A DNA stretch of 64,000 nt, taken from contig CAWDLY010000020.1 of assembly GCA_963803315.1 (NCBI GenBank), positions 136,426 to 200,425 of the forward strand, written 5' to 3'. The notes under the pieces were generated by a model, which did not search any database, was not told the DNA's origin, and worked only from the letters and a program-made list of their open reading frames with translations. Positions 10,989-59,414 of this stretch are shown here, one piece after another. The DNA is from an uncultured Verrucomicrobiae bacterium. Its GTDB lineage: Bacteria; Verrucomicrobiota; Verrucomicrobiia; Chthoniobacterales; UBA10450. How positions within the stretch are numbered: position 1 is the first letter of the stretch; the number at the start of each line of letters is the position of its first letter. The translations under genes and the position numbers were made by a program.

Positions 10989-11027
10989 AGCGACACCATC
11001 AGAGACCCCGCGCGGGACAGACGCAAA

Positions 11028-12333: not shown

Positions 12334-12347
12334 ATCACGCGCACTCT

Positions 12348-12602
12348 TTATCCGATTTTTTTCCGAAAGCGCAAGTGCGCAGACACAGAAAAGCAAAATC
12401 GAGATGCCGATAAGGATGACAAGGTGCTGCCAGTATTCGAATAAGTGTGCGCCGCGCAGGATTATTGCACGCATGAGCGAGATGAAATAGGTGGCGGGCA
12501 AGATTGTGCTCAGGGCGTAGAAAATCGGTGGCATGGTTTCGCGCGGGAATACGAAGCCGGAAAAGAAAACGCTTGGCAACATGAAGACCATCGACATTTG
12601 CA
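12348..12602 (-). pseudogene. Orphan 3' fragment (last ~85 codons) of an ABC-2 permease
   Basis: Encodes LQMSMVFMLPSVFFSGFVFPRETMPPIFYALSTILPATYFISLMRAIILRGAHLFEYWQHLVILIGISILLFCVCAL, identical in protein to the end of the 29481-30605 gene. About 18 nt substitutions are all synonymous. A 1-nt indel lies just before the stop. Confidence 0.85.
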
Positions 12603-12653
12603 GACAAGCGCGACAGCGTTCGCCGCGCGGTTTGCAAGAAATGCTCATGCCGT

Positions 12654-13412
12654 TTACCTGCGCTGCACGTTTATTCTCCAGGTATTGTGGTATTCAAAGA
12701 AGCCACCAAAGGCGGGTTGCGTGTTGATTGCGTCGAGCTTGAGCGTATGCATCCCGGGCGAAAGGGGCCCGTGGACGATGCTGATTCCCTCGAACCAGAT
12801 GATGGCGTCGATCGGCGGGAAATTGACCGGAATCCACGGGCTAAAGACGAACCCGGAGTAGAAGTTCATTACGTTTCCTCGACTGATTACGGTCGCGCCA
12901 TCAATCTTGAAGGTTATGTGCAACGTTCGGAAAACACTCCGGGGAACACGCGGGTCCGCTGGCGTCCCATCGGTGTAATGCGTCCCGAGTAGGACCCAAA
13001 GCGGGAGGACGAAGGCTTGTCCTTTGTAGAGAGTTACGTCGAGATGGCCGGGCGTGCCGTCTCCTGGAGCGTCCGGAAGCGGCATGAGCACAACCCCGGG
13101 AGGAACAACGGCGTTGCCGTTGAGATCAGTCGGAACAGTGATGGCGCCAAAGGCCCAACATTCATAGAGTGCGTTCCAAGCCGCGAGCGTTCGGCCGAGG
13201 AAGAGACAACGTTCGCGCGATTCGCCAAGGTTGTCCGTATTTGCGATGTCGCCTTCAAACGTGACCGCATCCGGCGCGGTGATAAGGATGCCTGGTAATG
13301 CCTGGCCCAAAGCCGACCCGACCAGGCAGGCGAGAAAGGCAGCGAGAAGCAGCCGTGTGTTCGTCTTAAGGCAAAGGATTCGAAACAAGCCGTTTGATTT
13401 ATTGGTATTCAT
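12654..13412 (-). CDS. Secreted hypothetical protein (leader MNTNKSNGLFRILCLKTNTRLLLAAFLACLVGSALGQA)
   Basis: ORF 12654-13541. ATG 13412 is preferred because the neighbouring gene starts with a homologous MNTN leader. No family was recognised. Confidence 0.6.
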   Translation of the reverse strand: MNTNKSNGLFRILCLKTNTRLLLAAFLACLVGSALGQALPGILITAPDAVTFEGDIANTDNLGESRERCLFLGRTLAAWNALYECWAFGAITVPTDLNGNAVVPPGVVLMPLPDAPGDGTPGHLDVTLYKGQAFVLPLWVLLGTHYTDGTPADPRVPRSVFRTLHITFKIDGATVISRGNVMNFYSGFVFSPWIPVNFPPIDAIIWFEGISIVHGPLSPGMHTLKLDAINTQPAFGGFFEYHNTWRINVQRR

Positions 13413-13429
13413 ATTTTGGTTTTCCATTT

Positions 13430-13487
13430 TTGAGTTGGAGCAGTGATCGCTTTCCCTTTCCAACGGTGTGTCGAAGTGGCCGCTACA
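13430..13487 (-). promoter_or_regulatory. Conserved upstream motif L, copy L1 (candidate ECF-type promoter)
   Basis: On the minus strand: TGTAGCGGCCACTTCGACACACCGTTGGAAAGGGAAAGCGATCACTG. It ends ~20 nt before ATG 13412 and shares its core with L2-L5. Confidence 0.5.
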
Positions 13488-13660
13488 AAAGAATTGTAAG
13501 TTTCCTTTCAAGTCACTTCGCGGAATGAGCAGTTCCTTCAATCACAACACGCGAGTGAATCTCGCACGGCTGGTTCGCGTATGATGCGCCGTTTCAGCGC
13601 CGAGCTGCAAACTAGTGTCGCGAAAGTGAAAAAGGGGGACAGGAAGTAACTGTCCTTATT

Positions 13661-13682
13661 TCATGTTCCGTACGGAACATGA
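13661..13682. promoter_or_regulatory. Operator-like perfect palindrome P1 (TCATGTTCCGTACGGAACATGA)
   Basis: The 16-bp core TGTTCCGTACGGAACA lies at 13664-13679. It is one of five copies in the window. Confidence 0.6.
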
Positions 13683-13730
13683 ATCTTATTACTTCTTTCC
13701 TTGGCGCTTCTAGCGCCAGACAGAAATAAC

Positions 13731-13763
13731 GATGCCTCACGATGTTCGACACCGTGAGGCATC
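13731..13763 (-). terminator. Hairpin terminator after the 13785-14388 gene
   Basis: GATGCCTCACG...CGTGAGGCATC stem, followed on the minus strand by GTTATTTCTG. Confidence 0.5.
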
Positions 13764-13784
13764 TGAGTTATCGCCGGACGACTG

Positions 13785-14388
13785 TTACAGCCCTGGCGGC
13801 TGGAATATCACGTGAATGAGCCCGTTGAACGAACCTTCGCTGCGGCCGGTGAGACCGTCTGGTGCAAAGGTGAGTAGCCGATTTACAGTGAAGCTCCCGG
13901 CCGCGCCGGTATAATAACCAGTGCCACCGGTGACGGTGTGAAACTCGATTATTGATTTCACTGTCGCATTCCCGGTGTCACTCATTTGCCCTGTCGTGGT
14001 CGTATAGATACTATCTCCGTTAGCGTCGATGAAACGCGCGCACTGCGGACTCGCTCCGGTCGCGTAGTCGACCAGACCTGCGTAGACGACGCGGAACCGG
14101 CCTAACGGGCTTGCATCGGCGTTACCACCCGCCGCCACAACCAGAATGTATGGATTGATTGCCGACTGCTGGGCGGCGTCGAGCGATTTGGCAGATTGTG
14201 GATAATACTGATAGCTCTCCGCTGCAATCAGGCTTCCCCTGAAACGGATTACGCCTATGGGCAGCGAGTCCGCCCAGGCCGAGCCCACCAGGCAGACCAG
14301 CAAGGAGGCAAGAAGCAACCGCGTCTTCGCTTTGCGAGCAAGAGACGCGGAGCGATTGAAACGAAACGTTTGTTTGATTGGTATTCAT
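13785..14388 (-). pseudogene. Secreted hypothetical protein, leader out of frame with mature part
   Basis: ATG 14388 gives MNTNQTNVSFQSLRVS... The mature frame (LLLASLLVCLVGSAWADS..., ORF 13785-14318) is offset by 1 nt near 14320-14335. Alternatively the TTG at 14318 is the start. Confidence 0.5.
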
Positions 14389-14407
14389 ATATTTTTCTTT
14401 CTGTTTT

Positions 14408-14468
14408 GAGGTTTGAGCGATTGACTCGCTTTCCCTTTCCAACGGCGTTCCGCAGCCGGCGCTACACA
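14408..14468 (-). promoter_or_regulatory. Conserved upstream motif L, copy L2
   Basis: On the minus strand: TGTGTAGCGCCGGCTGCGGAACGCCGTTGGAAAGGGAAAGCGAGTCAATCGCTCAAACC. It ends ~20 nt before ATG 14388. Confidence 0.5.
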
Positions 14469-14512
14469 AAGGTAGTGTTCGCTGATTGTTAGCGGCGCGT
14501 GGCTTCGTCGTT

Positions 14513-14587
14513 GTAGCCGGGATCGGTGATCCCGGGAGTGAGTCCGGCGCCTCTTCCGGAGCGGCCGGGGTCACCGACCCCGGCTAC
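14513..14587. repeat. REPIN-like doublet (GTAGCCGGGATCGGTGATCCCGG ... CCGGGGTCACCGACCCCGGCTAC)
   Basis: Inverted REP-like units with GTAG/CTAC ends in the divergent spacer. Confidence 0.65.
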
Positions 14588-14697
14588 AACTGCGCTCCGC
14601 ACAGAGAAACAACTGGCAATTCACCAACACTACCCTGCGCAGACATTGATTTTTTTTCACGCTTGCCTTCCCGATTGCCTCGCAGCACCCTAACGAA

Positions 14698-15471
14698 GTG
14701 AGTTCCCTGCCGGGCGCTGTCCGTGGCGGGAGCGATGATCCCTTCGCTCCCACCCATTGGAGCGTAATCGCCGCGGCATCGAGAAATGAAATCGAGCCGG
14801 AGCAAGCCCGCGCCGCGCTCGGGCAGCTTTGCGAAGTGTATTGGGCGCCCCTTTACGCGTTCGTCCGCAGTCGCGGCCATTCCGTGCACGATGCGCAGGA
14901 CCTCACGCAAAGTTTTTTCGCTCACCTGATCGAACGCGAAATATATGGCCGGGCTGATCGCGCCAAGGGCCGGTTCCGCTCCTTCCTGCTCGCTGCTTTG
15001 AAAAACTTTCTGGCCGACGCCTATGCGTACGCGCACGCGCTGAAGCGCGGTGGTGCGGAGGATTTTTTACCTCTCGATGAGAGTCGGGCCGAGGCGGCGG
15101 AATCGCTTTTCCAGACGCATTCGAAAACCGGTGAGCCGATCGGAGAAGATCGGCTTTTTGAGAAAAGCTGGGCAGATGCGCTCGTTGCCACCAGTCTGGC
15201 GCGGCTTTTAGCAGAGTATCAAAGCGAAGACAAACAGACGCTCTTTGAGCGATTAAAGATTTTTTTGACCGGAAGCCCGGACCCGCTGCCCAGCTACGAT
15301 CAGCTTTCCATTGAAATGGAAATGCCGGCTTCCAGCATACGCACATACGTTACGCGCTTGCGCCAGCGTTACCGCGAAACTTTGCGCGCTGAGGTCCGCC
15401 AAACAGTCGAGACCGAGGCGGAAGTAGATGAGGAATTGCACGAGCTGTTTCGCGTGCTGTCCGCAACGTGA
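14698..15471 (+). CDS. ECF-type sigma-70 factor of the Ser/Thr-kinase-linked type (ECF43-like)
   Basis: 257 aa with an N-terminal PFAPTHWSVI motif, sigma-2-like LCEVYWAPLYAFVRSRGHSVHDAQDLTQSFF, and sigma-4-like SYDQLSIEMEMPASSIRTYVTRLRQRY. Its stop overlaps the kinase GTG (GTGA). Confidence 0.75.
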   Translation: MSSLPGAVRGGSDDPFAPTHWSVIAAASRNEIEPEQARAALGQLCEVYWAPLYAFVRSRGHSVHDAQDLTQSFFAHLIEREIYGRADRAKGRFRSFLLAALKNFLADAYAYAHALKRGGAEDFLPLDESRAEAAESLFQTHSKTGEPIGEDRLFEKSWADALVATSLARLLAEYQSEDKQTLFERLKIFLTGSPDPLPSYDQLSIEMEMPASSIRTYVTRLRQRYRETLRAEVRQTVETEAEVDEELHELFRVLSAT

Positions 15472-18295
15472 AAGTCCTAACCGTGAAAACGCTCGCTCCC
15501 CGCATCGCGCTTTGTTCGACATGCGGCAGGATGTTGAATGAGAAAGGCGAGTGCATGTCCTGCCTTGTTCGGTTGGGGTTTGATCAGCCGTTACCGGAAT
15601 TGTCTTCCGCAGTCTTCGGCGATTTCGAAATCGTGCGGCGCGAAGATGGCTTATTTTGGGAACTCGGACGCGGCGCGATGGGTGTGACTTATCGCGCCCA
15701 GGACAAGGTGTTGAATCGCACCGTCGCGTTAAAAGTGATCGACCCACCGGCAACAGAAGGCGGCGGGCAGGCGGTGCGGGATCGTTTCTTGCGCGAGGCT
15801 CGCGCCGCGGCGGCCTTTCGCCATCCAAATGTGGCAGGTGTGTTTCACTTCGGCGCCTCGAGCGAAGGCGATCGTTGCTACTATGCCATGGAGCTGGTCG
15901 AGGGCGAAACTCTCGAAGCACTCGTTAGGCGTGATGGTCCGTTAGAAGTCAAAGTCGCGCTCGAAATGACAGTTCAAGTCACGCGCGCGTTAATCGCAGC
16001 GGCAGCGCATGGACTCATCCATCGCGACCTTAAGCCGGGTAACATCATGTTGATCCGAAGCGACGCTTCAGAGCTTGAGGTTAAAGTGATCGATTTCGGT
16101 TTAGCCAAAGCGATTGCGGATGGTGGAAAAGAAATGGACTTGACCAAGGGCGGCTTCATCGGCACGCCTGCTTTCGCCAGCCCCGAGCAATTCAGCGGCG
16201 CAGCCGCCGATGCGCGCTCCGATATCTACTCGTTAGGCGTGACGCTTTGGTATGCGCTCACGGGCGAGGTGCCGTATCAGGGAAAAACTATTGAAGAGAT
16301 TCGCCATCGTCAGAGCGATCTCCCACTGCCAGTACAAAATTTGGTCGCGCGCAAAATCCCGACTCCCGTTATTCAGCTACTGCGTCGAATTCTCGCCGTG
16401 GATCCAACCCAACGACCAGCATCGGCTCGGGATTTTATGGAAGCCCTGGATTCGTGCCGCTCACGTTTGGGGCTTATTCCTTTGCCAAGATCGAAAGTGC
16501 GACAAGCCGTCCGCATGGACTTGCAGCCCTTGCCGCTGCGGTGGCGGTCGGCGCCGTAGGTTTTTTTGCTTTCCGGCCATCGCAGCAGAAACCAACGCCC
16601 GCTATAGCAGCCACCGCGCAAGTAGCACTGCCGCCGGTAGTCATACCTAGGAAGTCGATCGCGGTTCTGCCATTCGAAAATCTTAGCGCGGAGAAGGAGA
16701 ACGCTTTCTTCGCGGATGGAGTGCAAGACGACATCCTTACGGCGTTGTCGAAAATCGCCGACCTCAAAGTCATCAGCCGGACCTCTGTGATCAGTTATCG
16801 CGCAGGGGCCGCGCGCAACTTGCGCGCGATCGCTCAAGAATTGGGTGTCGCCAATATTTTGGAAGGCAGTGTTCGCCGCGCCGGAGGCAAAGTCCGGGTA
16901 ACAACCCAACTGATCAATGCGCAGACCGACGCTCATTTGTGGGCCGATACTTACGATCGGAGTTTGGAAGATGTCTTCGCGATTCAAAGCGACATCGCAT
17001 TACAAGTCGCGGCGCAACTGCAGGCGAAGCTCTCGCCCAGCATCAAGTCCGCCATTGAGGAGCGTCCCACCAGCGATTCGATCGCATATGAGTTTTACAC
17101 GCGGGCTAAATTACTCCGGCAACAACCGATGACGGCGCCAGCTGAACAGTTGGAGGCGATAGCATTGCTTGACCAGGCGGTGAGGCGAGACCCGCAGTTT
17201 CACCTTGCCTATTGCGCATTGGTGTCGTTGCACACGCTGTAATACGCGTACTTTGAACATGTGCCGGCACGACGCGCTTTGGCGGAGCGCGCTCTCGAGG
17301 CGGCAGTCCGTTTGCGGCCGGACGCGGCCGAAACTCATCTTGCTCGAGCGGATTACTATTATCGCTGCGACTTTAATTACGACAAAGCCAGGGCAGAACT
17401 CGCGCTGGCCCAGCGGGAACTTTCTGGCGAACCGCGCTTTTTCATCACCGCAGCCCGGATGGACCGATGTCAAGGCCGCTGGCAGGACGAACCTCGCAAT
17501 TGGGAGAAAGCGCTCGAACTCGATCCTCGGAACATGCAGAGCTATAAGCAGCTCTACGAATCTTACCGGGAGGTGCGGCGCTATCCAGAAGCCGCCGCGG
17601 CTCTGCAGCGCGCAGCGGCCATCGATCCGGCCGCGCCGTGGCCGCGGATATTACGCGGCGACCTCGAACTTCAGTGGCGGGCCAACACCAAGCCTTTGCA
17701 TGAGATTTTCGACGAGTTGATAAAGAAAGATCCAGAGAATATTTGGACCGAAGTGTGGTTCGACCTTGCCCTCTGCGAGCGTGATCCAGATGCGGCTGCC
17801 AGAGCCGCGGCTGAACTGGAGTGCGACCTACGATGGTGTGTGGCTCCGCGAGGGGTGGTTTAAGGGTTTAGCCGCGCGCATCCGCGGCGACGAGACGGCG
17901 GCAAGAATGGCGTTCACCGCGGCTCGTGTGGCAGCCGAAAAGGAGGTAACCGAGCAGCCAGATTACGGTCCTCCATTGTGCGCGCTCGGCCTTATCGACG
18001 CCGCTCTCGGACGGAAAGACGAGCGATCCGGGAAGGTCGGCGCGCCGCAGGAACTTCTCCCGGTAACCAAAAATGCTATCGCCGGCGCAATATATCCAAG
18101 ACATTCCTCGCCCTGATCTACGTCTTCTGCGGGGAGAAGGACCTTGCGATTGAACAACTGCAAACTTCGATGAAATCCTACAACGCCATGTTGTCCTACG
18201 GGGAACTCCGCCTGCATCCGTTCTGGGATCCGTTGCGCGGCGATCCGCGTTTTGAGAAACTCGTCGCCAGCCTTGCGCCCAAGCCGGGTGAGTAA
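15468..18295 (+). pseudogene. Membrane Ser/Thr protein kinase with periplasmic TPR domain (copy 1), at least 4 disruptions
   Basis: Order of parts: Cys4-like N-terminus (CSTCG..CMSC), Hanks kinase (HRDLKPGNIML, DFGLAK, GTPAFASPEQ), a TM segment, then KSIAVLPFENLS... and TPRs. The gene is split over ORFs 15468-16559, 16454-17242, 17261-17863, 17766-18116 and 17978-18295. Confidence 0.75.
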
Positions 18296-18318
18296 GTGCC
18301 CAACCACTACAGCCGCGA

Positions 18319-21216
18319 TCAGAATTTCTTCGTTAGGCTAAAGTAAATAAACCGCCCGGTGGGGTCGTAGAGGTACCTGTGGATAATCATTCACGCTATC
18401 GGGCGGGTCGTGGTCGAACAGATTGGTACAACCAACCGAAACGCGCATGCCATCGAGGATTTGCTTCCAACCCGGGCGGGCGTGGCTACCGCTGATGGAG
18501 GTGAAGTCGTAGGCTGCTTGCAGGTCAAAAAACCAGGTTTGCTTCACCCAGTGTTCTCGGCCGTTAAGGCCGAATTCGTGAAAACCGTCACGATAATTCG
18601 ACTGTGGCGGACAACTCGAAGTCCCGCCAACTCCAATCAAGGCGGGATGTTCCTTTCCATTTTAAATAGGCGTCTTCAGAAAAGAAAACGGTTGGGCTGG
18701 GGCTGCTGCGCAGCTCTTTTTCCTTTTCCCCGGGGACGGAGGAGAATTGAAAGGAATCCAGGAAGGCTCACTTGCGTGACGGAGGTGAAAGTTCCGAAGG
18801 ACGTCTGGAGCTGATACTGGAGGGCGAAATCAACGCCGCGGGCTTTTTGTGTCCCGCTGTTTTGATAGGACTCTGACATCGCCAGAAGGTTTCCGTTGGC
18901 ATCTCTCGTGGCGCTCTCGCCCGGCAGTGGATTTCCGGCCGCAACGCGCGCAAGAACATCTTCCGGATCTGGATTCGGGTTAATCCATCCGGTGGTTTCG
19001 ATGTCGAAAAGATCTACGGTCAGGGTGAGCCCCGGAATGAATTTTGGCGTGTAAACGAACCCTCCGCTGAAAGAACGGGAATCCTCCGGTTGCAGGTTAG
19101 GGTTATTGAGAAACGTCGTTGGAACTTCACTAACCTCTGCGCCCGTGACCGGATCTCTCACGTCCTGGAAGAATAGAACGAGCTCCTTGCTGTGCCGAGG
19201 TTTACCAGTGAAGGTTGTTTGAAACCTTCGCCCCAGGTCGCGCGGAAAGTGAGCGAATCGTCGAACGGCTGCCAGCGCATTCCAAACTTTGGCACCATCA
19301 CATTGCTGCCGTTGTTGAGAAATTCTTCGTAGCGGACCGCGGCGGTAAATTCCAGCGCATGAAACCCGGGTGCGGTGCAGCCGGAGCCGAAAACCGGGAT
19401 ACTCGTTTCGGCATAAGCGGCGTACTCGCTTCGGCTTGCGCGCACAGGGAAAAAGATGCCGGTGCCGAGAAGATCCCCGGCATTTTGCAGGACAGTTGTT
19501 TCCTGGCTGTTCGTCTCGTGTTGAAATTGTCCGCCGAAAGCGAGGCCGACGCCGCCCGCGGGCAATTTGAACAGTTCCGTCGTGTAGATGTTGACGTCGA
19601 CCGTCGTCGCACTACCGCGGTCCGGTTCGCGCTCGTGCAGAAGCACGTAGTCAATAAGCCGGTAATTCGATGCGATCGGTCTGCGATAATCGCCGAATGG
19701 ATTGTAAGGAGTGGTTGTGCCGATGTATTCCGGGGAGCTCGGATCAAAGATCGGATCGGCCGCATTGAGCGTGCGATTGAAACGCGATGGCAGAAGGACC
19801 ATTCCAAATGGTGGTGCTAAGAATGTGGCTGTAACGAAATGCGGCGTCGTAACCCCACGTGCCGTCAAAGAGTTTATCTCCTTTGATTCCGGCGGTGGTG
19901 AAAAATGCATCGACCTTGGTGTCAAACTTCGCGATTTCCCAATTCAAAGGTGCGTCCTCTGCTTCCGCCGGAGATTATTTGTTGAAAGGGATTGAAGGGA
20001 TTGTAAGCGCCGGGAGATACACCAGTTTCCTCATAGGTCGGACCTCCGAGCACCGCCCCGGGCGCATGTGGTGGAATCGCGATGAGCGGAAGCCCTGGCG
20101 ATTGAAAATCGTTAGTATTGGAAGGAGCCAATTCGTTGTGCGTATTGACACGTTGATACAGGAAGTCGGCGTAAATCACCATCTGGTTATCGAAGACTCC
20201 GTGATGCGCGTTTAAGTAGGCGCCGTAACGCTCGGAGTCCGGCAGGGCGCTGGTGAAAATCAACGGCGGGAATAGGACACTGCGTCCTTCCGAATAGGTA
20301 TAGGCCGAGGCCGGAGCAGAACCATTACTGAGAAATGGCGCGTGCCCAAAGAAGGTATCGCCCGACCCTGGAGGTGGATTGCCTCCAGCTGCGATCACTG
20401 CTGCGCGCGACAAGCTCCAGATTAAACGGACTGGCATTCGAACTGAGAATGGTTCGAGGTGTCTGGGTCGCCGAATACGATCGGTCACTGTTGAAAATAG
20501 AGTTCCTGCGGTAGTAATTAAGGACGCCGGTGACATTGGTATTTTCACTGCCGAGTCCGAAGACGAGCGAAGAAGCGAACTCAGTTGAATCTTTGTTCGT
20601 CGTATTTCCAGCCTCGATATTCACTTCTGCATCCGTGTAATTGTGGCGCAACTTAATGTTGATCACGCCGGCCACGGCATCGGCGCCATAGGTGGTCGAA
20701 GCACCGTCTTTCAGGATCTCGATGCTTTCGATTGCGGCTTTCGGAATCGAATTCAAGTCGATGAACAACTGCGAGCCATCGGCCGTCCCACCCGGAAAAG
20801 GCGTTACACGATGTCCATCAATCAAAACAAGTGTCGCTCCCGGATCGAAACCCCGCAACGAGATTGACGAAGCACCCAGCGCGAGAGGACTAGACGCATT
20901 ATTGTTCGCGATCGCGACGCCATTGGCGTTCGCGATCGGCAGATTCTTGATCAACTCCTCGCCGGTGCGTTCTCCGGAGGCGTCGATCACTGTGCGAGTG
21001 ATAACCTGCACCGGGTTCGGCCCCACTTCCGCCGCCGTTGGAATAAGAGAGCCAGTGACCATCACGCGCTCAGCCTCCGCAGTCTTCGAAGCTTCGCTAG
21101 CCGATTCGTCGCCCGGGGTTGGCGTTGCCTGCTGTGCGCTAATCGTCGCGCCTAACGACAGGACAGATCGTTGTCGTGAATGCAAGAGCACAACTCTTGC
21201 GGATTAGATTTTTCAA
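18319..21216 (-). pseudogene. TonB-dependent receptor (copy 1), at least 5-6 frame changes
   Basis: TTG 21216 gives MKNLIRKSCALAFTTTI. This is followed by a plug domain (ISLRGFDPGATLVLIDG, IEILKDGASTTYGADAVAGVINI), barrel fragments in ORFs 20325-21191, 19922-20548, 19158-19925, 18676-19161 and 18338-18640, and a terminal FIYFSLTKKF followed by a stop in yet another frame. Confidence 0.75.
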
Positions 21217-21448
21217 GGTGGGGTCCTTTCATCGCTTGCAAAGCCGTGCGAAAGAAAGCGACCGTGAGCTTGGGGCCAACCCTGCGATCTATTGCCGACG
21301 TTGAGTAACGCTACCTTGGCGGATGCCTCAAACCGATTGCAAGCATCAAATTCGGTAAACATAGACAAGCGAGTTCACACCGCTTTCTTTTAAGAGTTGA
21401 AGCGATGATCGCTCGCCGTTTCCAACGGCATTCGAGAACGAGCGCTAC
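21217..21448 (-). promoter_or_regulatory. Receptor leader including motif L3 (core 21385-21448)
   Basis: Minus-strand TGTAGCGCTCGTTCTCGAATGCCGTTGGAAACGGCGAGCGATCATCGCTTCAACTC plus ~170 nt up to the TTG. It is almost identical to 27555-27786. Confidence 0.55.
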
Positions 21449-21505
21449 ACAAATTGCGATTTTTCTGCGCTTGCCTTTGCGATTGCTTCGCACCAACCTA
21501 ACGAA

Positions 21506-21635
21506 GTGAGTTCCCTGCCGGGCGCGGACGTGGCCGGAGCGATGATCCCTTCGCTCCCACCCATTGGAGCGTGATCGCCGCGTCATCGAGAAATGAAATT
21601 AAGCCGGAGCTGTTCGCGTGCTGTCCGGTACCTGA
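21506..21635 (+). pseudogene. Remnant of the ECF sigma gene (internal ~690-nt deletion)
   Basis: The first ~30 codons (SSLPGA...PFAPTHWSVIAA..RNEI) are fused directly to the last codons (LFACCP..). The junction lies at the shared CCGGAGC microhomology. Compare 14698-15471. Confidence 0.75.
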
Positions 21636-21701
21636 AAGTCCTAACCGTGAAAACGCTCGCTCCCCGCATCGCGCTCTGTTCGACATGCGGCAGGATATTG
21701 A

Positions 21702-24462
21702 ATGACGAAAGGCGAGTGCATGTCCTGCCTCGTTCGGCTGGGGTTCGATCAACCCCTGCCGGAACTGGCTTCAGCTGTCTTTGGCGATTTCGAAATCTGC
21801 CAGCGCGAGGATGGCTTTCTTTGGGAACTTGGACGTGGCGCGATGGGTGTGACTTATCGCGCTCAGGACAAGGTGTTGAATCGCAGCGTCGCATTGAAAG
21901 TGATCGACGCACCGGCGACAGAAGGCGGCGGCCAGGCCGTGCGGGATCGCTTTTTGCGCGAGGCGCGCGCCGCTGCGGCTTTCCGTCATCCGAATGTAGC
22001 AGGTGTGTTTCACTTCGGCGCTTCAACCGAAGGCGATCGTTGCTACTATGCGATGGAGCTGGTCGAAGGTGAGACTCTGGAGGCACTCGTTAGGCGCGAC
22101 GGTCCGTTGCAAGTCAAAGCGGCGCTCGAGATGACGGTTCAAGTGACGCGCGCCTTAATTGCCGCCGCGGGGCACGGTTTGATCCATCGCGATCTCAAGC
22201 CGGGTAACATCATGTTAATCCGCAGCGACGCTTCCGAGCTTGAGGTTAAAGTGATCGATTTCGGTTTAGCCAAAGCGATCGCGGATGGTGGAAAAGAAAT
22301 CGACCTGACCAGGGGTGGCTTTATCGGCACGCCTGCTTTCGCCAGCCCCGAGCAGTTCAGCGGCGCAGCGGCCGATGCCCGCTCCGATATCTACTCGTTA
22401 GGCGTGACGCTTTGGTACGCGCTCACGGGCGAGGTTCCCTATCAGGGAAAAACCATCGAAGAGATTCGCCATTGTCAGAGCGATCTCCCACTGCCGGTGC
22501 AAAATTTGGTCGCGCGCAAAATCCCGACTTCCGTCATTCAGCTATTGCGCCGCATTCTCGCAGTTGATCCAACTCAGCGGCCAGCGTCAGCTCGGGAATT
22601 TATGGAAGCCCTTGAGTCATGCCGCTCACGTTTGGGATTCATTCCTTACCAAGAGATCGAAAGCGCAACAAACCTTTCGCATGCTCGCGGCCCTCGCCGC
22701 GGCAGTCGCGGTCGGCGCTGTGGGGTATTTCGCTTTCCGGCCGTTGCAACAGAAACAAACGCCGGCTATTGCAGGCACCACGCAAGGAGCATTGGCGCCG
22801 GTGGTCATACCGATGAAATCGATCGCGGTTCTGCCATTTGAAAATCTCAGTGCCGAAAAGGAGAACGCATTTTTCGCGGATGGAATGCAGGACGACATCC
22901 TCACGGCGTTATCGAAAATCGCCGACTTAAAAGTCATCAGCCGTACCTCCACGATCAGCTATCGCGCGGGGGCCGCCCGCAACTTGCGCGCGATCGCGCA
23001 AGAATTGGGCGTCGCTAATATTTTGGAAGGCAGTGTACGTCGCGCGGGAGGCAAAGTCCGGGTAACAACGCAACTGATTAATGCGCAGACCGACGCTCAC
23101 CTATGGGCCGATACTTACGATCGCAGTTTGGACGATGTCTTCGCGATTCAAAGCGACATCGCGTTACAAGTCGCGGCCCAACTTCAGGCGAAGCTCTCGC
23201 CCAGCGTCAAATTCGCCATTGAGGAGCGTCCCACCCGCGATTCGACAGCATACGAGTTTTACACCCGGGCTAAACTTCTCCGGCAAAAGCCGCTCACGTG
23301 GTCCGAGGATCAGTTGGAGGCGATAGCATTGCTGGACATGGCGGTGAAGCGAGACCCGGAGTTTCACCTTGCCTACTGCACGTTGGTGTCGCTACACGCG
23401 ATCTTATACGCAAACTGGGAACATGTGCCGGCACGGCGCGCTTTGGCGGAGCGTGCCCTTGAGGCAGCAGTCCGTTTGCGGCCGCGTGCGGCCGAGACTC
23501 ATCTCGCTCGAGCGGATTACTATTGTCGCTGCGAGTTTGATTACGACAAAGCCCGGGCAGAACTTGCCTTGGCCCAGCGGGAACTTTCTGGCGAACCGCG
23601 GTTTTTCATCACCGCAGCCAAAATAGACGGATTTCAAGGCCGTTCAGAGGACGAACCTCGCAATTGGGAGAAGGCACTCGAACTCGACCCCCGCAACATG
23701 CAGAGCTACAAGCAGCTCTTCGAATCTTACCGTCACGTGCGGCGCTATTCAGAAGCCGCCGCGGCTCTGCAACGAGCAGCGACTATCGATCCGACCTCGG
23801 TGTGGCCGCGGATATTACGCGGTGAACTCGAACTGCAGTGGCGGGCCAAGACCAAGCCTTTGCATGAGATTTGCGACGAGTTGATGAAAGATCCAGAGAT
23901 CGCCGCTAGTTGGGCCCATGTGTGGTTCGGCCTTGCCTTCTGCGAGCGTGATCCAGATGCGGCTGCCAAGGCGGCGGCGGTGGTTGAAGAACTGACTTAC
24001 GACGGGGTGATAGTTCCGAAGGCGTGGTTTGCTGGTTTATCTGCATCGAGCCGAAACGACCAAATCACGGCAAAGAAAGCGTTCATGTCAGCTCGCGCTG
24101 AAGCGGAAAAAACATTAGCGGAGCAGCCTGAAGAAGGAACGGCGTGGTGTGCGCTTGGCCTCATCGACGCCGCTTTGGGACGGAAAGACCGAGCGATTCA
24201 TGAAGGTCGCCGGGCTGTGGAACTTCTCCCCGTAACCAAGAATGCTGATACCGGTGGGATTATCCAGGATTTCCTTGCCCTGATCTACGTCTTCTGCGGG
24301 GAGAAGGACCTTGCGATCGAACAACTGAAGACTTCGATGAAATCCTACAACGGCATGTGGTCCTACGGAGAACTCCGCCTGCAGCCGTATTGGGATCCGT
24401 TGCGCGGTGATCCGCGTTTTGAGAAATTCGTCGCCAGTCTTGCGCCGAAACCGGGCGAGTGA
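21702..24462 (+). pseudogene. Membrane Ser/Thr protein kinase with periplasmic TPR domain (copy 2), 1-2 frameshifts
   Basis: The kinase domain is ~95% identical to copy 1. ORFs 21702-22841 and 22564-24462 join near 22682-22690. The ancestral GTG start and Cys4 N-terminus are lost (extra C near 21700, and GTG changed to CTG at 21632). Confidence 0.7.
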
Positions 24463-24534
24463 GCGTTGATCACCGTGACCCTGATCAGAGTTTGTCAACC
24501 GGACTCTTCGATTAAAAGAGGTTCAAACGAAACT

Positions 24535-27500
24535 CTAAAATTTCTTCGTTAGGCTGACATAGACGAAGCGGCCAACGGCGTCGTAAATGAAACCCGGATA
24601 GCCCGTCGAGTTACCGAAGCCCCCGAAAGCTATTGGGTTATCCTGGCCAAATACATTGTTGCAACCAACCGTGATGCTAGTGTTGTTCACCAGGTTCTTC
24701 CAGCACGGCATTGAGTAATTGGCCGTTTGTGAGTGGCTTCGCGACGATCCTTACTGTCCTTAGAGTATCCTGCCACTGGCTGTGACTCCACCGGAGGCGC
24801 GAAAGCGAAGTTGTAGGTTCCCTGCACATCAAAGGTCCAGGTGGCCTTGATCCAATGCTCCTTCTTTTTGTCAGGCAAAAAGTCCGCATCGAAGAGAATT
24901 TCGTGGAAACCACTGATGTAGTTCACGCTCGCGAAGATATCGAAGTTGTTCCAAGTCCAGTCGAGCGACGATCTGCCCTTCCATTTCAGATAACCATCGT
25001 CGGCGGTCGAAGATGAGAAACCCGTCCCTATTCCCGATATTTGTCCGACCGGAGTGCCGCTGACTTCGATCGTTGGATTGCCGGCAGTCAGCTGTAGTCT
25101 GAAGGAATCCAGATATGTCGCCTGCGTCAGCGAAGTAAATGTGCCGAAGGGCGATTGGTATTGATATTGGATTCCAAAATCGACACCACGTGCGCGCGCC
25201 TGGGCGGCGTTTTGGAAGGTAAAGCCGATGAGTGAGATGTTGCCGGCGACGTCACGCTCGACGAACTCACCAGGAAGGAGAGTGCCAGCAGCCTCACGAG
25301 CGAGCACCTGATTGGCATCTGGCGTCGCCACGACACCTGTGCGTTCGATGCTCCAGAGATCGAGCGAGAGAGTCAAACCCGGCACGAATTTGGGCGTAAA
25401 GACCACGCCTGAGCTGAATGAGTGCGAGTCCTCTGGTTGGAGATTCGGATTGCTCGAAAACAGGATATTTGTTTCTGATTCGAAATTTCCCGTGAGAGGA
25501 TCGGTCGTAGGCGTAAGTGCCAGCGGTGGCGCCCGAAAATAGCTCAAAGAGCGACGGTTCGCGGAAGCCTTTACCCCATGTCGCGCGGATGGTTAACGAG
25601 TCGTCAAAGGGCTGCCAGCGCATACCCAGTTTCGGCACCAAAACATTCGTGTCGTTGTTGCGAAACTCTTCGTAGCGGCCCGCCGCATTAAATTCCAAGG
25701 CGCGGAAGCCAGGAATCGCGTTTTCCGGGCTGAAAATCGGAATGGACGTCTCCGCATAGAACGCAAACGTTTTGCGGCCGCCGATCCGTACCGAAGAGGC
25801 CCACGTCGATGATCGATTGATCCACGCTCTGCTCGATGTTTTCACGGCGGAACTGTCCGCCGACGGCAAACCCAACACCGCCCGCCCGGAAGTTTAAACA
25901 GCTGGGTGGTGTAGATGGTCGCGTCGAGGGTTGCCAATTTAGAGGAATCGATCTCCTTGGGATGCCCGAGAACGAAATCCACGAGCGCGGCATTGGAAGG
26001 GATGTCAACCCGATAATCGCCAAATGGATTGTAGGCAGCCGCTCCTTCGAGAACTCCGCCCGGTCCAAAGATCGGGTCGGCCTGATTCAAAACTTGATTA
26101 TAACGCGGGATGGAAACGATCTGTGCCGTAAAAGTCTCCTTGACTTGACTGTAGCGGAACCCGAAATCGTAACCCCAGTTCCCGTCGAATAGTTTGTCAC
26201 CTCTGGCACCGAGGGTGAAGAGTATTGCATCGGTCTCGTCATTAAATAGTCGGTTGCCGAATTCAGCCGCTCGCAAACGGCTGCCGCCCGAAATAATCTG
26301 CCCAAACGGATTGAATGGGTTGAAGGCATTGGCCGGAACTCCGGTCTCCGCGTGGGTTGGTGTGTCAGGTGGTTCAGCGCCGGGCGCGATCGGTGTATTT
26401 GGGGGAATTGCGATCGCGATAAACCCAGCGGTCTGGAAATCTCCAGTGGCTAGCGGCGCCAGTTCGTTATGGGTCTTTACATTTTGATAAAGCATGTCGG
26501 CATAGAGCACTAATTGTTCGCCACAGATCTTGTGCTCGGCGTTCACGTATCCGCCCCACCGTTCCGATTCCGGAAACGAGCTCGAGAAGGCGTTAAAGTT
26601 AAAGAACGAAGTACGCCCGAGCTCGAATAGACATAGTCCGAGGCCGGGCTAAAGCCATTCGTGAAGAACGGCGCATGACCAAAGAATACGGGAAGCGGCA
26701 CACCATTGGCGTCCACAGGGAGAGTCGCCGGATCGACTCCCGCTGCGATGACTACGTCCCTGCTTAACTGCAAATTTGCCGGACTTGAGTTCGTGCTAAG
26801 GAATGGCGGCTTGGAGGAAAGCCCACCACGGTCACGGTTAAAGATCGAGTTGTGATGATAATAGTTAATGACACCGCTGACCTGCGTCGTCTCATCGCCG
26901 ATACCAAACAGGAGGTCGGCCGTGTAAAGGCCACCATCCTTGTCGAGTGTATTGCCATAAGATAGTGTCGCCTCCGCTCCACGGTAATTGTGGCGGAGCT
27001 TGAGGTTGACGACACCAGCAACCGCGTCTGCACCGTAGGTGCTCGAAGCGCCATCCTTCAGAATTTCAATGGAGTCGATCGCCGCCCGTGGGATCGAATT
27101 CAAATCCACGAAGGATGTTGTGCCACCGTTTCCAATCGGATACGGGGCAACACGCCTGCCGTCGACCAAAGTGAGGGTGGCACTGGCATCGAAACCGCGC
27201 AGCGAAACCGAAGAAGCGCCCGAAGTAAAGCCGGTCGCGTTATTCGAAACAGGAACACCATTGGCATTCGCCACCGGGAGATTGCGGATGAGTTCTTCGG
27301 CGTTGCGCTCACCGCGCTTGTTGATCAAATCGCGATTGATGGTCAAAATCGGGTTCGGCCCCACTTCTTCCGCCGTTGGAATGTTGGAACCGGTTACAAT
27401 GACGCGCTGAGCTTCCGCAGTCTCCGAAGCTTCGATTGCCGATTGGTCGCTCGGAGTTGGTGCTGCCTGCTGTGCACTAGTCGTCGTGCCTAACGACAGA

Positions 27501-27554
27501 ACGATCGTCGTAGTGAATGCAAGAGTACAGACCCTTGCGGATTAGATTTTTCAA
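24535..27554 (-). pseudogene. TonB-dependent receptor (copy 2), at least 5 frame changes
   Basis: TTG 27554 gives MKNLIRK. The plug and barrel lie in ORFs 26543-27364, 25842-26546, 25294-25878 and 24687-25547. The C-terminus ...GRFVYVSLTKKF followed by a stop is in another frame. About two-thirds identical to copy 1 by eye. Confidence 0.75.
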
Positions 27555-27786
27555 GGTGGGGTCCTTTCATCGCTTGCAAAGCCGTGCGAAAGAAAGCGAC
27601 CGTGAGCTTGGGGCCAACCCTGCGATCTATTGCCGACGTTGAGTAACGCTACCTTCGCGGATGCCTGAAACCGATTGCAAGCATCAAATTCGGTAAACAT
27701 AGGCAAGCGAGGTCACATCGCTTTCTTCGAAAGTTGAGGCGACGATTGCTCGCCGTTTCCAACGGCATTCCGGATCGGGCGCTACA
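27555..27786 (-). promoter_or_regulatory. Receptor leader including motif L4 (core 27723-27786)
   Basis: The first ~125 nt upstream of the TTG are identical to copy 1. The core is GTAGCGCCCGATCCGGAATGCCGTTGGAAACGGCGAGCAATCGTCGCCTCAAC. Confidence 0.55.
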
Positions 27787-27854
27787 AGAAATCCGTTGGA
27801 ATCAGAATTATCCAAACGGATTGCATCCCCGAGTGCGCTCTTCGCTAATCATGC

Positions 27855-27870
27855 TGTTCCGTACGGAACA
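27855..27870. promoter_or_regulatory. Operator-like palindrome P2 (TGTTCCGTACGGAACA)
   Basis: Perfect 16-bp palindrome ~70 nt upstream of motif L4. Confidence 0.6.
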
Positions 27871-27894
27871 CAATTTTTGAGGCTGGATTGGCCG

Positions 27895-28024
27895 GATGCC
27901 TCAACTCGGTTGCAAACATCAAATTGCGTAAACATACCCGAGCAAAGTCACGCCGCCTTCCTTCAAAAGCTTGAAGCAACCGATCACTCGCGGTTTCCAA
28001 TGGCATTCCAGAACGAGCGCTACA
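27895..28024 (-). promoter_or_regulatory. Orphan third copy of the leader with motif L5 (core 27961-28024)
   Basis: GTAGCGCTCGTTCTGGAATGCCATTGGAAACCGCGAGTGATCGGTTGCTTCAAGC plus a diverged leader start. No gene follows it before L4. Confidence 0.5.
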
Positions 28025-28086
28025 AGAAATCGTTGGAATTATCCAAGCAGATGTATCCGCGAGCACAGCTTTACGCTTAAATATGC

Positions 28087-28102
28087 TGTTCCGTACGGAA
28101 CA
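28087..28102. promoter_or_regulatory. Operator-like palindrome P3 (TGTTCCGTACGGAACA)
   Basis: Lies 50 nt upstream of the PaaX-like start (28152) and ~65 nt upstream of motif L5, in a divergent control region. Confidence 0.6.
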
Positions 28103-28151
28103 CAGTTTTAGACTGGACATTGTGATCGCGGTTTGTCTTGGCTGGCAGGAT

Positions 28152-28922
28152 ATGAACTCCAAAACCGAAGAATTTCTTTATCTGTTGCTCTGGGGAGCCG
28201 AGACCTTAATGCATCCCACCTTCCGCAATTTGCATGAGTCGTATGAAGGGTGGGCCTACCGCACAGGCCTGCTGCCGCAACTTGCAAGACTTGAACGACG
28301 CAAGCTGATCGAGAAAAAGCCGGGAAAGATGGCTCAGCGCATCTATCGCCTCACCGAAACCGGCCGTCTCACCGCCCTGGCGGGTCGCGATCCTGAGGCC
28401 CGCTGGAGCCGTTCCTGGGACGGGCGATGGCGACTCGTTGTATTCGATTTGCCTGAAAGACAGAATGCCGCACGCGTGCGACTCCGGCGTTTCCTGAAGG
28501 AGCGCAATTTCGGTTACCTTCAGAACAGTCTTTGGATCACGCCGGACCCTTTGGATGATAGAGTGGCGAAACTAGGTGCGGGCGGCAAGGACGTCGAATC
28601 GTTCCTGACTCTGGAGGCCCGGCCCTGCTCGGGAGAGAGCGACCGGGCGATTGTCGCGGGAGCGTGGGATTTCAATAAGATCAATCGGCGTTACGAGGAT
28701 TGTCTCTGCTTGCTGAAAAACCACCCGCCGTTTCATCGAATTGCTGCTGCAGGTACGGACAAGCTTTGGCAATGGGCGCGGCGGGAGCGGGTCCTCTGGC
28801 GCGCGGCTATCCAAAGCGATCCGCTTTTGCCATCGGTGCTTCTGCCGAGAGGCTACCGCGGCAAAGAAGTCTGGCGCAAGCGGAACTCGGTGTTACGAAA
28901 AGCCGGGCAACGGTTTAAGTAA
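28152..28922 (+). CDS. PaaX-family transcriptional regulator
   Basis: N-terminal wHTH (LARLERRKLIEKKPGKMAQRIYRLTETG), then the PaaX signature WDGRWRLVVFDLPERQNAARVRLRRFLKERNFGYLQNSLWITPDP. ATG 28152 is preferred because ATG 28083 lies inside palindrome P3. Confidence 0.75.
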   Translation: MNSKTEEFLYLLLWGAETLMHPTFRNLHESYEGWAYRTGLLPQLARLERRKLIEKKPGKMAQRIYRLTETGRLTALAGRDPEARWSRSWDGRWRLVVFDLPERQNAARVRLRRFLKERNFGYLQNSLWITPDPLDDRVAKLGAGGKDVESFLTLEARPCSGESDRAIVAGAWDFNKINRRYEDCLCLLKNHPPFHRIAAAGTDKLWQWARRERVLWRAAIQSDPLLPSVLLPRGYRGKEVWRKRNSVLRKAGQRFK

Positions 28923-28940
28923 TGTTTCAATATTGTATGC

Positions 28941-28956
28941 TGTTCCGTACGGAACA
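28941..28956. promoter_or_regulatory. Operator-like palindrome P4 (TGTTCCGTACGGAACA)
   Basis: Lies 19 nt after the PaaX-like stop and is followed by A6C5T9. Confidence 0.5.
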
Positions 28957-29255
28957 GTGAAAAAACCCCCTTTTTTTTTAGCGACCGAAGGGTTTTATTC
29001 GGCGGCTAATTCGCGCAAGGCTGGTTGGTTTAGAGAAGCTACCCGGCTCGTTAGGCGAAAATTGTGGTCTAAGTGAAGCGGTCCATGCGAAGCTTGGCGA
29101 AATTTTGCCCGCTCTGCGCCCGGGGCGCATGAGCGCAAAAGGCTCTGAGGCAGGTCGGTGCTCCTTGCCGCTTAGCGCTGTCCTTCTGAGATAAGCTAGC
29201 TAGTGGTTTCACAAATAAAGTTTCTGCAATTCTTCGCTTGTTCTGAAGGCGCGCT

Positions 29256-29285
29256 AAAACGTTGTTCCGTACGGAACAACGTTTT
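29256..29285. promoter_or_regulatory. Operator-like palindrome P5, extended to 30 nt (AAAACGTTGTTCCGTACGGAACAACGTTTT)
   Basis: Perfect 30-nt palindrome containing the same 16-bp core (29263-29278). It could also act as a bidirectional hairpin terminator. Confidence 0.5.
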
Positions 29286-29480
29286 GCACATGCGATAGAG
29301 GGACCCACTCGTTCTTCCCCTTGTAGGCTGGTGGCGCTAATCTGGGGACTTTTGCCGGACATTGGCGCGGGAGAAGTTTGACGTGAGTTGAAAGAACTTC
29401 CCAGTCACACCAATAGGTCACACCGCTTCTTTCAACGTTTGAGAACAATGATCGACCACGAGGAGATTGCCCATCGCGAG

Positions 29481-30605
29481 TCACCCGATCTTTTTTCGGA
29501 ATCGCAGCGCGCAGACGCAGAAAAGCAAAATCGATATGCCGATAAGGATGACGAGGTGCTGCCAGTATTCGAATAAGTGTGCGCCGCGTAAGATGATCGC
29601 GCGCATGAGGGAAATGAAATAGGTCGCAGGCAGAATCGTGCTCAGGGCGTAGAAAATCGGCGGCATGGTTTCGCGCGGGAAGACGAAGCCGGAAAAGAAA
29701 ACGCTCGGCAACATGAAGACCATCGACATTTGCAAGGCCTGCATTTGGTTCTCGGCTTTGGTGGCGACGAGCAGGCCGAGACTGAGCAATGCGAATACGT
29801 AAACGAGCGTCGCGAACATCATCGCGATCACGCTTCCGTTAATCGGCACGCCAAACAGGAATCGCATGATCAGAAACAGGATCACGGCCATCATCATGCC
29901 GATGCAGAGATAGGGAACGAGTTTGCCGAGCATAAGTCCCCAACGGCTGAGTGGACTAACGAGTAATGTCTCGAGCGTTCCTTTCTCGCGTTCGCGCACG
30001 ACGGCCATGGCGGTGGCGAAGGTGGTGCCGATTTGCAGGACGATGCCGATCACGCCCGGGATGTAGAAGTTCGGGCTTTTCATCGCCGGGTTGTAAAGCA
30101 TTTGCGGGCGGATCTCGATCGGCACATCGCGTCTTCCGCTTTCGCGCAGGAGCGTTTCGATCGATTGCGTGAGACCGACGGCAAGCGCGGTGTTGAGCGC
30201 TTGGAGCGCAGTTGTGGAATTCGAACCGTCGATGAGCAATTGCACCTGAGCGGGATTTCCAGCACGCACATCGCGCGTGAAGGTCGGCGGAATCTCGAGT
30301 CCGACATAGGCGCGACCACCGCGAATCGCGCTTGCCAGTTCGTCGATGCTTCGCACTTCGCCGACGACGCGAAATGTTTCGGTGTTCACGAATCGATCGA
30401 TGAACTGCCGGCTCTCGACCGTGCGATCTTCGTTCAGGATCATCATCGCCATGTGTTTCACATCGGTGTCGAGCGCGTAACCGAACGCGATCATTTCCAC
30501 GAGGGGCGGGAAGAACATGAAGAACAACGTCATCGGATCGCGCCAGACGATGATGAATTCCTTGAACAAAATGGCGCTGAGGCCGCGGAAGGGAACGTGT
30601 TTCAT
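29481..30605 (-). CDS. ABC-2 type transporter permease (YbhS/YbhR-like)
   Basis: 374 aa with 6 TM segments and an ABC-2 membrane domain. It lies downstream of the ABC ATPase and the HlyD-like gene. Confidence 0.85.
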   Translation of the reverse strand: MKHVPFRGLSAILFKEFIIVWRDPMTLFFMFFPPLVEMIAFGYALDTDVKHMAMMILNEDRTVESRQFIDRFVNTETFRVVGEVRSIDELASAIRGGRAYVGLEIPPTFTRDVRAGNPAQVQLLIDGSNSTTALQALNTALAVGLTQSIETLLRESGRRDVPIEIRPQMLYNPAMKSPNFYIPGVIGIVLQIGTTFATAMAVVREREKGTLETLLVSPLSRWGLMLGKLVPYLCIGMMMAVILFLIMRFLFGVPINGSVIAMMFATLVYVFALLSLGLLVATKAENQMQALQMSMVFMLPSVFFSGFVFPRETMPPIFYALSTILPATYFISLMRAIILRGAHLFEYWQHLVILIGISILLFCVCALRFRKKIG

Positions 30606-59380: not shown

Positions 59381-59414
59381 TGCAAATCGCCTGGTCGTTA
59401 GCGAAACTCAGTTC

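Follow-up and report, generated by a model that had tools for sequence, protein, structure and literature searches.

Lineage-specific palindromes on both sides of a PaaX-like gene point to a putatively autoregulated and probably mobile regulator cassette in Verrucomicrobiota

Introduction

In phage λ the repressor gene cI lies between the palindromic operators OL and OR; its mRNA is leaderless and autoregulated, and operator specificity diversifies between modules of this kind. Another point of reference is the regulator PaaX of Escherichia coli, which represses its own promoter Px and binds TGATTC-N27-GAATCA, and whose solved structures contain a central Cas2-like domain as dimerisation motif (PMC9493321). 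A third are the repetitive extragenic palindromic (REP) sequences, whose classes are described in PMC3733652, together with the REP-associated tyrosine transposases (RAYT). Here we compare these systems with a locus in a 64,000-nt stretch of DNA from an uncultured Verrucomicrobiae bacterium (contig CAWDLY010000020.1, positions 136,426 to 200,425). Within this stretch, called the window in the following, a perfect 16-bp palindrome, TGTTCCGTACGGAACA, occurs in five copies (P1 to P5), two of which flank a gene for a PaaX-like protein.

A preliminary description, made from the sequence alone, had interpreted the copies as an operator set through which the PaaX-like protein would control neighbouring genes for receptors and secreted proteins. 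The comparison with homologous loci leads us to a different explanation, in which we have moderate confidence: TGTTCCGTACGGAACA would be the cognate site of an autoregulated PaaX-like protein, and the unit of palindrome, gene and palindrome would be a mobile cassette, not part of a receptor regulon.

The regulator gene and its protein

The palindrome starts at positions 13664, 27855, 28087, 28941 and 29263 of the window, for which 0.03 copies are expected by chance, and no further copy appears when up to two mismatches are allowed. The earlier claim of five identical copies with none elsewhere in the window is thereby confirmed. The extent of perfect symmetry differs slightly from the 22 and 30 nt first given for some copies: P1 to P5 measure 24, 16, 16, 18 and 30 nt.

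The PaaX-like gene (28152-28922, plus strand) encodes 256 residues from its best start, the ATG at 28152. P3 (28087-28102) ends 49 nt before this start codon, in line with the 50 nt first reported, and is the putative autoregulatory operator. Downstream, P4 (28940-28957) is an 18-nt palindrome whose 16-nt core begins 18 nt past the stop codon. Judged by their positions, P3 and P4 are the canonical upstream and downstream copies that bracket the gene.

Three domains make up the protein: a winged helix-turn-helix (wHTH) at about residues 1-80, a Cas2-fold domain at about 90-160 and a helical PaaX_C domain. This architecture of wHTH, Cas2-like PaaX_M and PaaX_C places it in the broad PaaX family. 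In Pfam, PaaX_M is matched at 5.4e-19, and PadR-like wHTH and PaaX_C are matched weakly. The same layout of a wHTH, a βαββαβ centre and a helical C-terminal domain is seen in an AlphaFold (AF2) model built from an alignment of 117 sequences, with a predicted local distance difference test (pLDDT) of 80 and a predicted TM-score (pTM) of 0.75; a model from 21 sequences was too poor and was discarded. Foldseek matches the model to E. coli PaaX (8A39), to Rv0674 (3KFW) and to 3L09, followed by type II-A Cas2 for the central domain.

Membership in narrower families is not supported. The NCBIfam PaaX equivalog TIGR02277 scores 59.5 bits against a cutoff of 264.55, and no paa catabolic genes are found near the gene or near the examined homologues. 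Hidden Markov models (HMMs) of Cas2 match weakly at residues 93-128, where 18.7 bits stay below the threshold of 24.5. When the Cas2-like domain alone was compared with PDB sequences by phmmer, no Cas2 was recovered, and there are no cas genes among the annotated neighbours, CRISPR arrays not having been searched for. A profile search returned 376 clusters (50% identity) at E ≤ 1e-30, which is an upper estimate of the size of the subfamily; its members are routinely mis-annotated. Among viral contigs and plasmids there are no close relatives, only distant actinobacterial PaaX-like genes. In the searchable literature we found no description of the subfamily, of its palindromes, or of PaaX together with the term Cas2-like. 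The PaaX-like protein is a member of an undescribed wHTH/Cas2-fold/PaaX_C subfamily.

One palindrome type for each gene lineage

Does the palindrome belong to the gene or to its surroundings? This question was approached with a set of 82 homologous loci, and most genes in 80 metagenome loci that encode homologues are bracketed. In about 60 of the 82, a single palindrome type stands on both sides of the PaaX-like gene, with an upstream copy that ends 44-47 nt before the start codon and a downstream copy 3-20 nt past the stop. In the closest homologues, P0002 (79% identity) and P0009 (68%), both flanking copies are the identical 16-mer, 44-45 nt ahead of the start and 3-12 nt past the stop, and the gene neighbourhoods are unrelated. 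Bracketing is also found in L001, L083 and L119; in L001, where the gene lies between hisH and sodA, the copy on its other side has one mismatch. The exact 16-mer adjoins a PaaX-like homologue or the remnant of one in L001, L083, L082 and L062. Neighbours elsewhere include GFA/EamA genes, a Ser/Thr kinase with a glycosyltransferase, and hisH/sodA; in the window they are a TonB receptor and an ABC-2 permease.

The palindromes share the general form TGTnnC-N4-GnnACA, within which the type is specific to the lineage (TGTTGCATATGCAACA, TGTCGCATATGCGACA, TGTCCCATATGGGACA, TGTCCCGTACGGGACA, TGATTCAGGTGAATCA, TGTAACACATGTTACA and others) and often 32-40 nt long. One member of the family, L124, uses TGATTC as its half-site, and the distant members L202 and L204 keep the layout with other cores. 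For 25 representatives below 80% protein identity, the sites differ at 0.72 of 16 positions within a locus and at 4.74 between loci, a separation reached in none of 10,000 permutations. Together with the bracketing, this tracking of the gene by its palindrome supports the earlier proposal that the palindrome is the site of a PaaX-family protein. The two flanking sites tend to be inverted relative to each other, although this trend is not significant.

In many extended sites the core is accompanied, about 10 bp further out, by GACAA…TTGTC arms, giving four TGT-like contacts spaced by one helical turn; the outer hexamers are then about N24 apart, a spacing near the N27 at which E. coli PaaX binds. 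There is also a likeness between the core form TGTTnC-N4-GnAACA and parS (TGTTNCACGTGAAACA), the site of ParB.

Which part of the protein might read the variable bases? Half-site positions 4-5 co-vary best with residues 103, 106, 107 and 109 at the start of helix α1 in the Cas2-fold domain. E109 pairs with TGTTGC (20/20) and V109 with TGTTCC (6/6), and A106 goes with T at half-site position 4, S or T at 106 with C. We take this covariation as a lead on specificity only. At the end of strand β1, D99 is invariant in the family.

The palindromes might instead be recognised by no protein and act through structure alone, as RNA or DNA hairpins that serve as terminators, mRNA stabilisers or insulators. 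Stable hairpins are indeed predicted for P1 (-13.6 kcal/mol, z -4.6) and P5 (about -22 to -24.5 kcal/mol), many palindromes are perfect over 32-40 nt, and sites are found just past stop codons. Most copies, however, have no T-tract, and P2 alone scores as terminator-like. Related loci stably retain asymmetric, hybrid sites in which the stem is broken, and the upstream copy keeps its phase to the promoter and not to the end of the upstream gene. A purely structural role would also leave unexplained why the palindrome type tracks the linked gene through unrelated contexts, and we consider it very improbable.

A further candidate for the binding protein is LexA, given that the outer pentamers TGTTC and GAACA are common to the palindromes and to the candidate LexA boxes noted earlier at 59367 and 60050. 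Both boxes are real (TGTTCATTTGAACT and AGTTCGTTTGAACA, TGTTC-N4-GAACA with a single mismatch each) and stand on either side of a true lexA gene (59415-60050). Next come a RecA-like (imuA-type) gene and an IMS-family (imuB-type) gene, and the whole region (59367-61355) makes up an SOS mutagenesis cassette. The link to the palindromes fails on spacing, which is N6 in the palindromes and N4 both in lexA's own, degenerate boxes and in the Verrucomicrobial LexA box (TGTTC-N4-GAACA, upstream of SOS genes). Moreover, the palindrome varies with the lineage of the PaaX-like gene and not with LexA, and SOS genes stand beside no examined copy. That the palindromes are SOS boxes of unusual spacing has next to no probability.

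A site in phase with the promoter

Of 62 loci, 53 have a gap of 44-47 nt between core and start codon, and 29 have one of 45 nt. Aligned upstream sequences of the homologues contain a TTGnnn/TnGACA box a few bases past the palindrome arm; its counterpart in the window is TGGACA (28114-28119, plus strand), a -35-like box 11 nt past P3. Many loci also have a CAnnnT-like box some 7 nt ahead of the ATG. The family geometry is therefore site, -35, 17 nt, -10, about 7 nt and ATG, which fits a leaderless, self-controlled promoter. In clades whose palindromes have long arms, the arm overlaps the -35 box.

The autoregulation through P3 that had been suggested for the window agrees with this geometry: P3 takes the promoter-phased position seen throughout the family, as a dyad-symmetric site at a fixed distance from the gene's own promoter. 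A PaaX-like dimer on P3, with a footprint that probably reaches beyond the 16-bp core, would control this promoter, presumably by autorepression; both the binding and the direction of the regulation we infer. Translation would begin about 45 nt past the upstream copy on what is probably a leaderless mRNA. The downstream copy would be a second high-affinity site, for which looping, a roadblock and termination are conceivable roles.

Receptor genes and the surrounding island

The preliminary description had assigned a wider role to the palindromes, with P1 to P3 as operators through which the PaaX-like protein controls the promoters of TonB receptor and secreted-protein genes. In this model the promoters would be those with the L motif, TTTCCAAYGG-N15-GCTACA, which occurs five times in the window (L1 to L5, at 13457, 14436, 21419, 27756 and 27994 in plus-strand coordinates). 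On the minus strand the motif takes the form TGTAGC-N15-CCRTTGGAAA and precedes the receptor and secreted-protein genes. On that strand P1, P2 and P3 do lie upstream of L motifs, and the distances of 177 nt (P1-L1), 69 nt (P2-L4) and 63 nt (P3-L5) agree with those first given (about 175 nt for P1, about 65-70 nt for P2 and P3). Incidental cross-regulation after an insertion is also conceivable.

Other observations speak against this model. L2 and L3 have no palindrome. P2-L4 and P3-L5 are not independent, but two copies of a single tandem duplication of about 235 bp, whose units (27658-27880 and 27893-28112) are about 78% identical overall. P2 (27855-27870) is a copy that arose by local duplication of a unit of L-leader and palindrome, as indicated by the repeats D16, D9 and D7 with spacings of 232-238 nt. 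Both P2 and P3 are palindromic over 16 nt only and share a non-palindromic 22-mer, ATGCTGTTCCGTACGGAACACA; that these 22 nt are identical in units that otherwise agree at about 78% points to constraint on the palindrome. Beyond the window, the L motif is found in none of the 201 loci fetched up to that search, and no neighbouring gene family is conserved across the 82 homologous loci beyond sets of syntenic strains.

Comparison of the same locus in relatives leads to a similar picture. The ABC-2 permease of the window has close relatives (94-97% protein identity) in four comparison loci, L205 to L208. In L205, whose ABC-2 gene has 92% nucleotide identity to that of the window, the stop codon is followed by 91 nt, the L motif (11224-11254) and a TonB receptor gene (86% nucleotide identity to window 27793-24362). 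L205 thus keeps motif and receptor without a PaaX-like gene, and its 16.8 kb contain no palindrome at up to three mismatches. What it lacks is a 1.67-kb block of the window (27794-29467) that consists of P2, the L5 copy, P3, the gene, P4, a 306-nt stretch and P5. Control of the receptor and secreted-protein genes by the PaaX-like protein is therefore very unlikely. The palindromes are not a designed operator set for these genes, and the L motif is independent of them; it is probably a promoter or leader recognised by an ECF-like (extracytoplasmic function) sigma factor encoded nearby.

This sigma factor is part of a larger insertion. In L206, L207 and L208 the ABC-2 gene is directly followed by an M28 peptidase gene (window about 10921-10006) with no island between the two, which identifies the island of about 18.5 kb in the window (10922-29480) as accessory. 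The 3' end of the ABC-2 permease is present twice, on either side of the island, as direct repeats at 12346-12602 and 29481-29734 that are 92% identical. The island contains two tandem cassettes of about 6.3 kb, two small secreted proteins and the PaaX-like cassette. Each 6.3-kb cassette encodes a TonB receptor, an ECF-like sigma factor and a Ser/Thr kinase with tetratricopeptide (TPR) repeats.

Between 13785 and 27500 the TonB receptor, kinase/TPR and sigma-like genes are split across frames, for instance into four open reading frames (ORFs) at 24687-27364 on the minus strand, which makes them pseudogenes unless the breaks are indel errors of a long-read assembly. The TonB receptor of L205 is also split in two. 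A small GIY-YIG gene, at 9568-9951, lies between the ABC ATPase and permease genes in L205 and L207, and is not called in L206 and L208.

Movement of the cassette and dispersed palindromes

The gene is present in some and absent from others among close relatives and occurs in unrelated contexts, as expected of a mobile cassette. Gene pairs with 85-92% nucleotide identity have no detectable similarity in their flanks (for example L130/L132 and L143/L155, or L146 and L192); in syntenic pairs the flanks are 80-94% identical. Homology begins upstream at the outer edge of the extended palindrome and ends downstream just past the palindrome. Decayed copies of the gene adjoin palindromes in L082, L062 and L130/L132. 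Read from these comparisons, the best-supported history of the window's PaaX-like cassette is a recent insertion at the edge of the 18.5-kb island. The unit of palindrome, promoter, gene and palindrome would be self-contained and would move between contexts, its private palindrome diversifying between lineages.

The same palindromes are also found without the gene. Two such solo copies are present in the window. P1 (13660-13683, core 13664-13679) lies 105 nt past the stop of a secreted-protein ORF (13785-14318, minus strand), and P5 (29256-29285) lies in a convergent intergenic region with its core 202 nt past the ABC-2 permease stop. Both may be secondary binding sites, or else footprints or landing pads of the cassette. 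The gene-less stretch between P4 and P5, put at about 300 nt in the preliminary description, measures 306 nt core to core and is unique (28958-29255). Nothing like it was found elsewhere in the window or in any fetched locus, it contains no PaaX-like gene remnant, and Rfam matches neither this stretch nor, in any relevant way, the rest of 12.5-30 kb of the window.

A scan for the exact 16-mer covered one genome per species; its copy numbers are lower bounds. Among the matches listed, Verrucomicrobial metagenome-assembled genomes (MAGs) are enriched, with at least 7 copies in MFD02979, at least 14 in NC_groundwater_1487 and at least 5 in LS6_sbin.56, mostly extragenic and at 3' ends. The 16 solo copies examined in related genomes include 5-6 in convergent, 7 in tandem and 1 in divergent gene intervals, the rest being ambiguous; five of the seven tandem cases are 29-49 nt past the upstream stop codon. 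The convergent pairs are pheT and a transposase, a DDE transposase and a hydrolase, a methyltransferase and an unknown gene, and an IS481 transposase and an SGL gene. Two genomes (L074 and L077) have retained the site downstream of pheT. PaaX-like remnants beside solo copies were seen in L082 and L062 only.

In NC_groundwater_1487 a 40-nt perfect palindrome, GTACATGAAATTTGTTCCGTACGGAACAAATTTCATGTAC, forms the centre of a miniature inverted-repeat transposable element (MITE) of about 200 nt with terminal inverted repeats CTCAGARRTCCTGAT and 13 copies, often at contig ends (L004, L009, L014, L034, L049, L067, L088, L094, L100, L104, L108, L116 and L118). This MITE and the upstream region of that genome's PaaX-like gene have the palindrome alone in common, not the arms. 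A second hairpin repeat, CTGCCGCC-GAAAAT-GGCGGCAG, adjoins some of the MITE copies. The possibility raised at the outset, that the palindrome is just another repeat family with many copies unrelated to the regulator, thus applies in part: many copies in related genomes are found away from the regulator locus, and once as a MITE family.

More distant occurrences of the exact 16-mer were also recorded. The Acidobacteriaceae MAG MFD05377.bin.2.169 has at least 5 copies (L006, L043, L051, L081, L095), and others occur in further Terriglobia/Eremiobacterota MAGs (L036, L044, L064, L115, L050, L091); the 8-kb blocks around these Acidobacteriaceae, Terriglobia and Eremiobacterota copies contain no PaaX-like homologue. 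On Kiritimatiellae, Lentisphaerae, PVC-group, Planctomycetia and Bacteroidales contigs (L002, L003, L024, L073, L117) the 16-mer is part of a longer CCGTAGAACATG-TGTTCCGTACGGAACA-GGCCGAT, apparently a conserved but unrelated element or part of a gene. Streptomyces matches share CCC-core-GGG within an apparently conserved gene.

How might such a cassette move? One possibility is a REP/RAYT-like or homing-type element, in which the protein would be catalytic, with its Cas2 fold positioned at the dyad, and would cut or recombine the palindrome centre and thereby mobilise its own gene; solo palindromes would be landing pads, or scars left by excision. In its favour, palindromes of the type that brackets the gene are also scattered over the same genomes (the three with at least 7, 14 and 5 copies), solo copies lie mostly 29-58 nt past stops or between convergent genes, specificity is private to each lineage and diversifying, and the unit shows presence/absence and context jumps. 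Moreover, a 3' remnant of another copy of the gene is left of the upstream palindrome in L130/L132, L122 and L192, sporadically and in three lineages only. Two lineages (L149/L179 and L158) have one type of half-site on the outside and another on the inside, the two outer ones agreeing among themselves and likewise the two inner ones, as attL/attR hybrids would show. The invariant D99 at the end of β1 and the Cas2 HMM matches at residues 93-128 point in the same direction. Yet the protein has no known recombinase or HUH fold, and no recombination of DNA is known for Cas2 alone. The plain repressor E. coli PaaX is likewise acidic at the position of D99, the polarity of inner over outer half-sites is not significant overall (11 vs 7), and copy numbers are far under those of typical REP families. 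We rate this alternative as possible but unlikely.

In its most far-reaching form, this idea would describe a new class of palindrome-targeted selfish cassette: a Cas2-fold dimer would sit on the dyad, helix α1 would read the variable inner bases, and the DNA would be cut or recombined there. If true, such a cassette would use solo palindromes as entry points for its gene and leave them behind when excised, REP/RAYT-like or homing but built on a Cas2 fold and not on a transposase. This is a rather improbable proposal. An orthologous-looking RlmI-type methyltransferase gene in L052 (6331-6406) and L177 (4873-4946) is followed, 55-57 nt past its stop, by a site of the palindrome type of the respective genome, which is a solo copy in L052 and the upstream copy of a PaaX-like cassette in L177. 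From their sequences, the two may represent an empty and an occupied site, or a coincidence.

Several observations weigh against the explanation we prefer, that of a cognate site for an autoregulated PaaX-like protein within a mobile cassette. As regards autoregulation, the window's own -10 element is poor. Perfect palindromes of at least 32 nt, present at about half of the upstream and a quarter of the downstream gene-flanking sites, are longer than a simple dimer needs. The match of sites within a locus, and of palindrome to clade, could stem from co-inheritance, or from recombination at the palindromes, with no protein touching them. Phylogeny confounds the residue-DNA correlation, and the mean normalised mutual information is similar across all domains. 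Solo copies, mostly past stops, often convergent and with neighbours that lack a functional theme, are atypical for transcription-factor targets and resemble REP sequences. As regards mobility, the only protein of the cassette has no transposase or recombinase domain. Target-site duplications were not found at the few junctions inspected by eye, and the insertion edges relative to L205 do not coincide with palindromes but lie beyond P2 and P5, where the junctions are not alignable; these last two points count equally against a REP/RAYT-like element. By what mechanism the cassette would move we infer only from such comparisons.

Comparison with known systems

If our explanation is correct, the subfamily consists of stand-alone DNA-binding proteins, each with a private palindrome around its own gene. 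It would offer a ready-made set of putative orthogonal protein-operator pairs, which is of interest for synthetic biology, and its recognition code may sit in a helix of the Cas2 fold, which is of interest for the evolution of Cas2. The evidence for mobility, together with the REP-like scatter of solo sites, hints at a possible new way for a regulator gene and its site to spread jointly. For annotation there is a note of caution: perfect palindromes beside a regulator are not necessarily operators of the neighbouring genes.

The likeness to Cas2 is confined to the modelled central domain, with its predicted βαββαβ order, acidic residue at the end of β1, arginine-rich helix α1 and Foldseek matches to type II-A Cas2. 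It differs in scoring under the family thresholds and in being fused to a wHTH and a PaaX_C domain, and no cas1 is seen among the annotated neighbours, CRISPR arrays not having been searched for. From the immunity regions of phages the locus differs by a single site on each side, another protein fold and the absence of a phage context, no relative being found on viral contigs.

With E. coli PaaX the protein shares all three domains (wHTH, Cas2-like centre and helical C-terminal domain), and 8A39 is its best structural match. The inverted half-sites TGATTC/GAATCA of E. coli resemble TGTTCC/GGAACA, but are N27 apart there and N4 here. The true PaaX, as repressor of the phenylacetate (paa) genes, is released from its operator by phenylacetyl-CoA. 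The gene described here also stays far below the equivalog cutoff, has no paa genes nearby, and is bracketed by two sites whose specificity diversifies between lineages.

The REP/RAYT systems are similar in another respect. There, as here, a single gene is flanked by its own short palindromes, which are dispersed extragenically, mainly at 3' ends, with one palindrome class for each gene lineage. The protein here is, in contrast, of the wHTH/Cas2-fold/PaaX_C type and not a Y1/HUH (IS200/IS605-like) transposase. Its palindromes carry no GTAG/CGTC tag and number in the range of at least 5-14 per genome instead of hundreds, and here it is the gene itself that appears to move.

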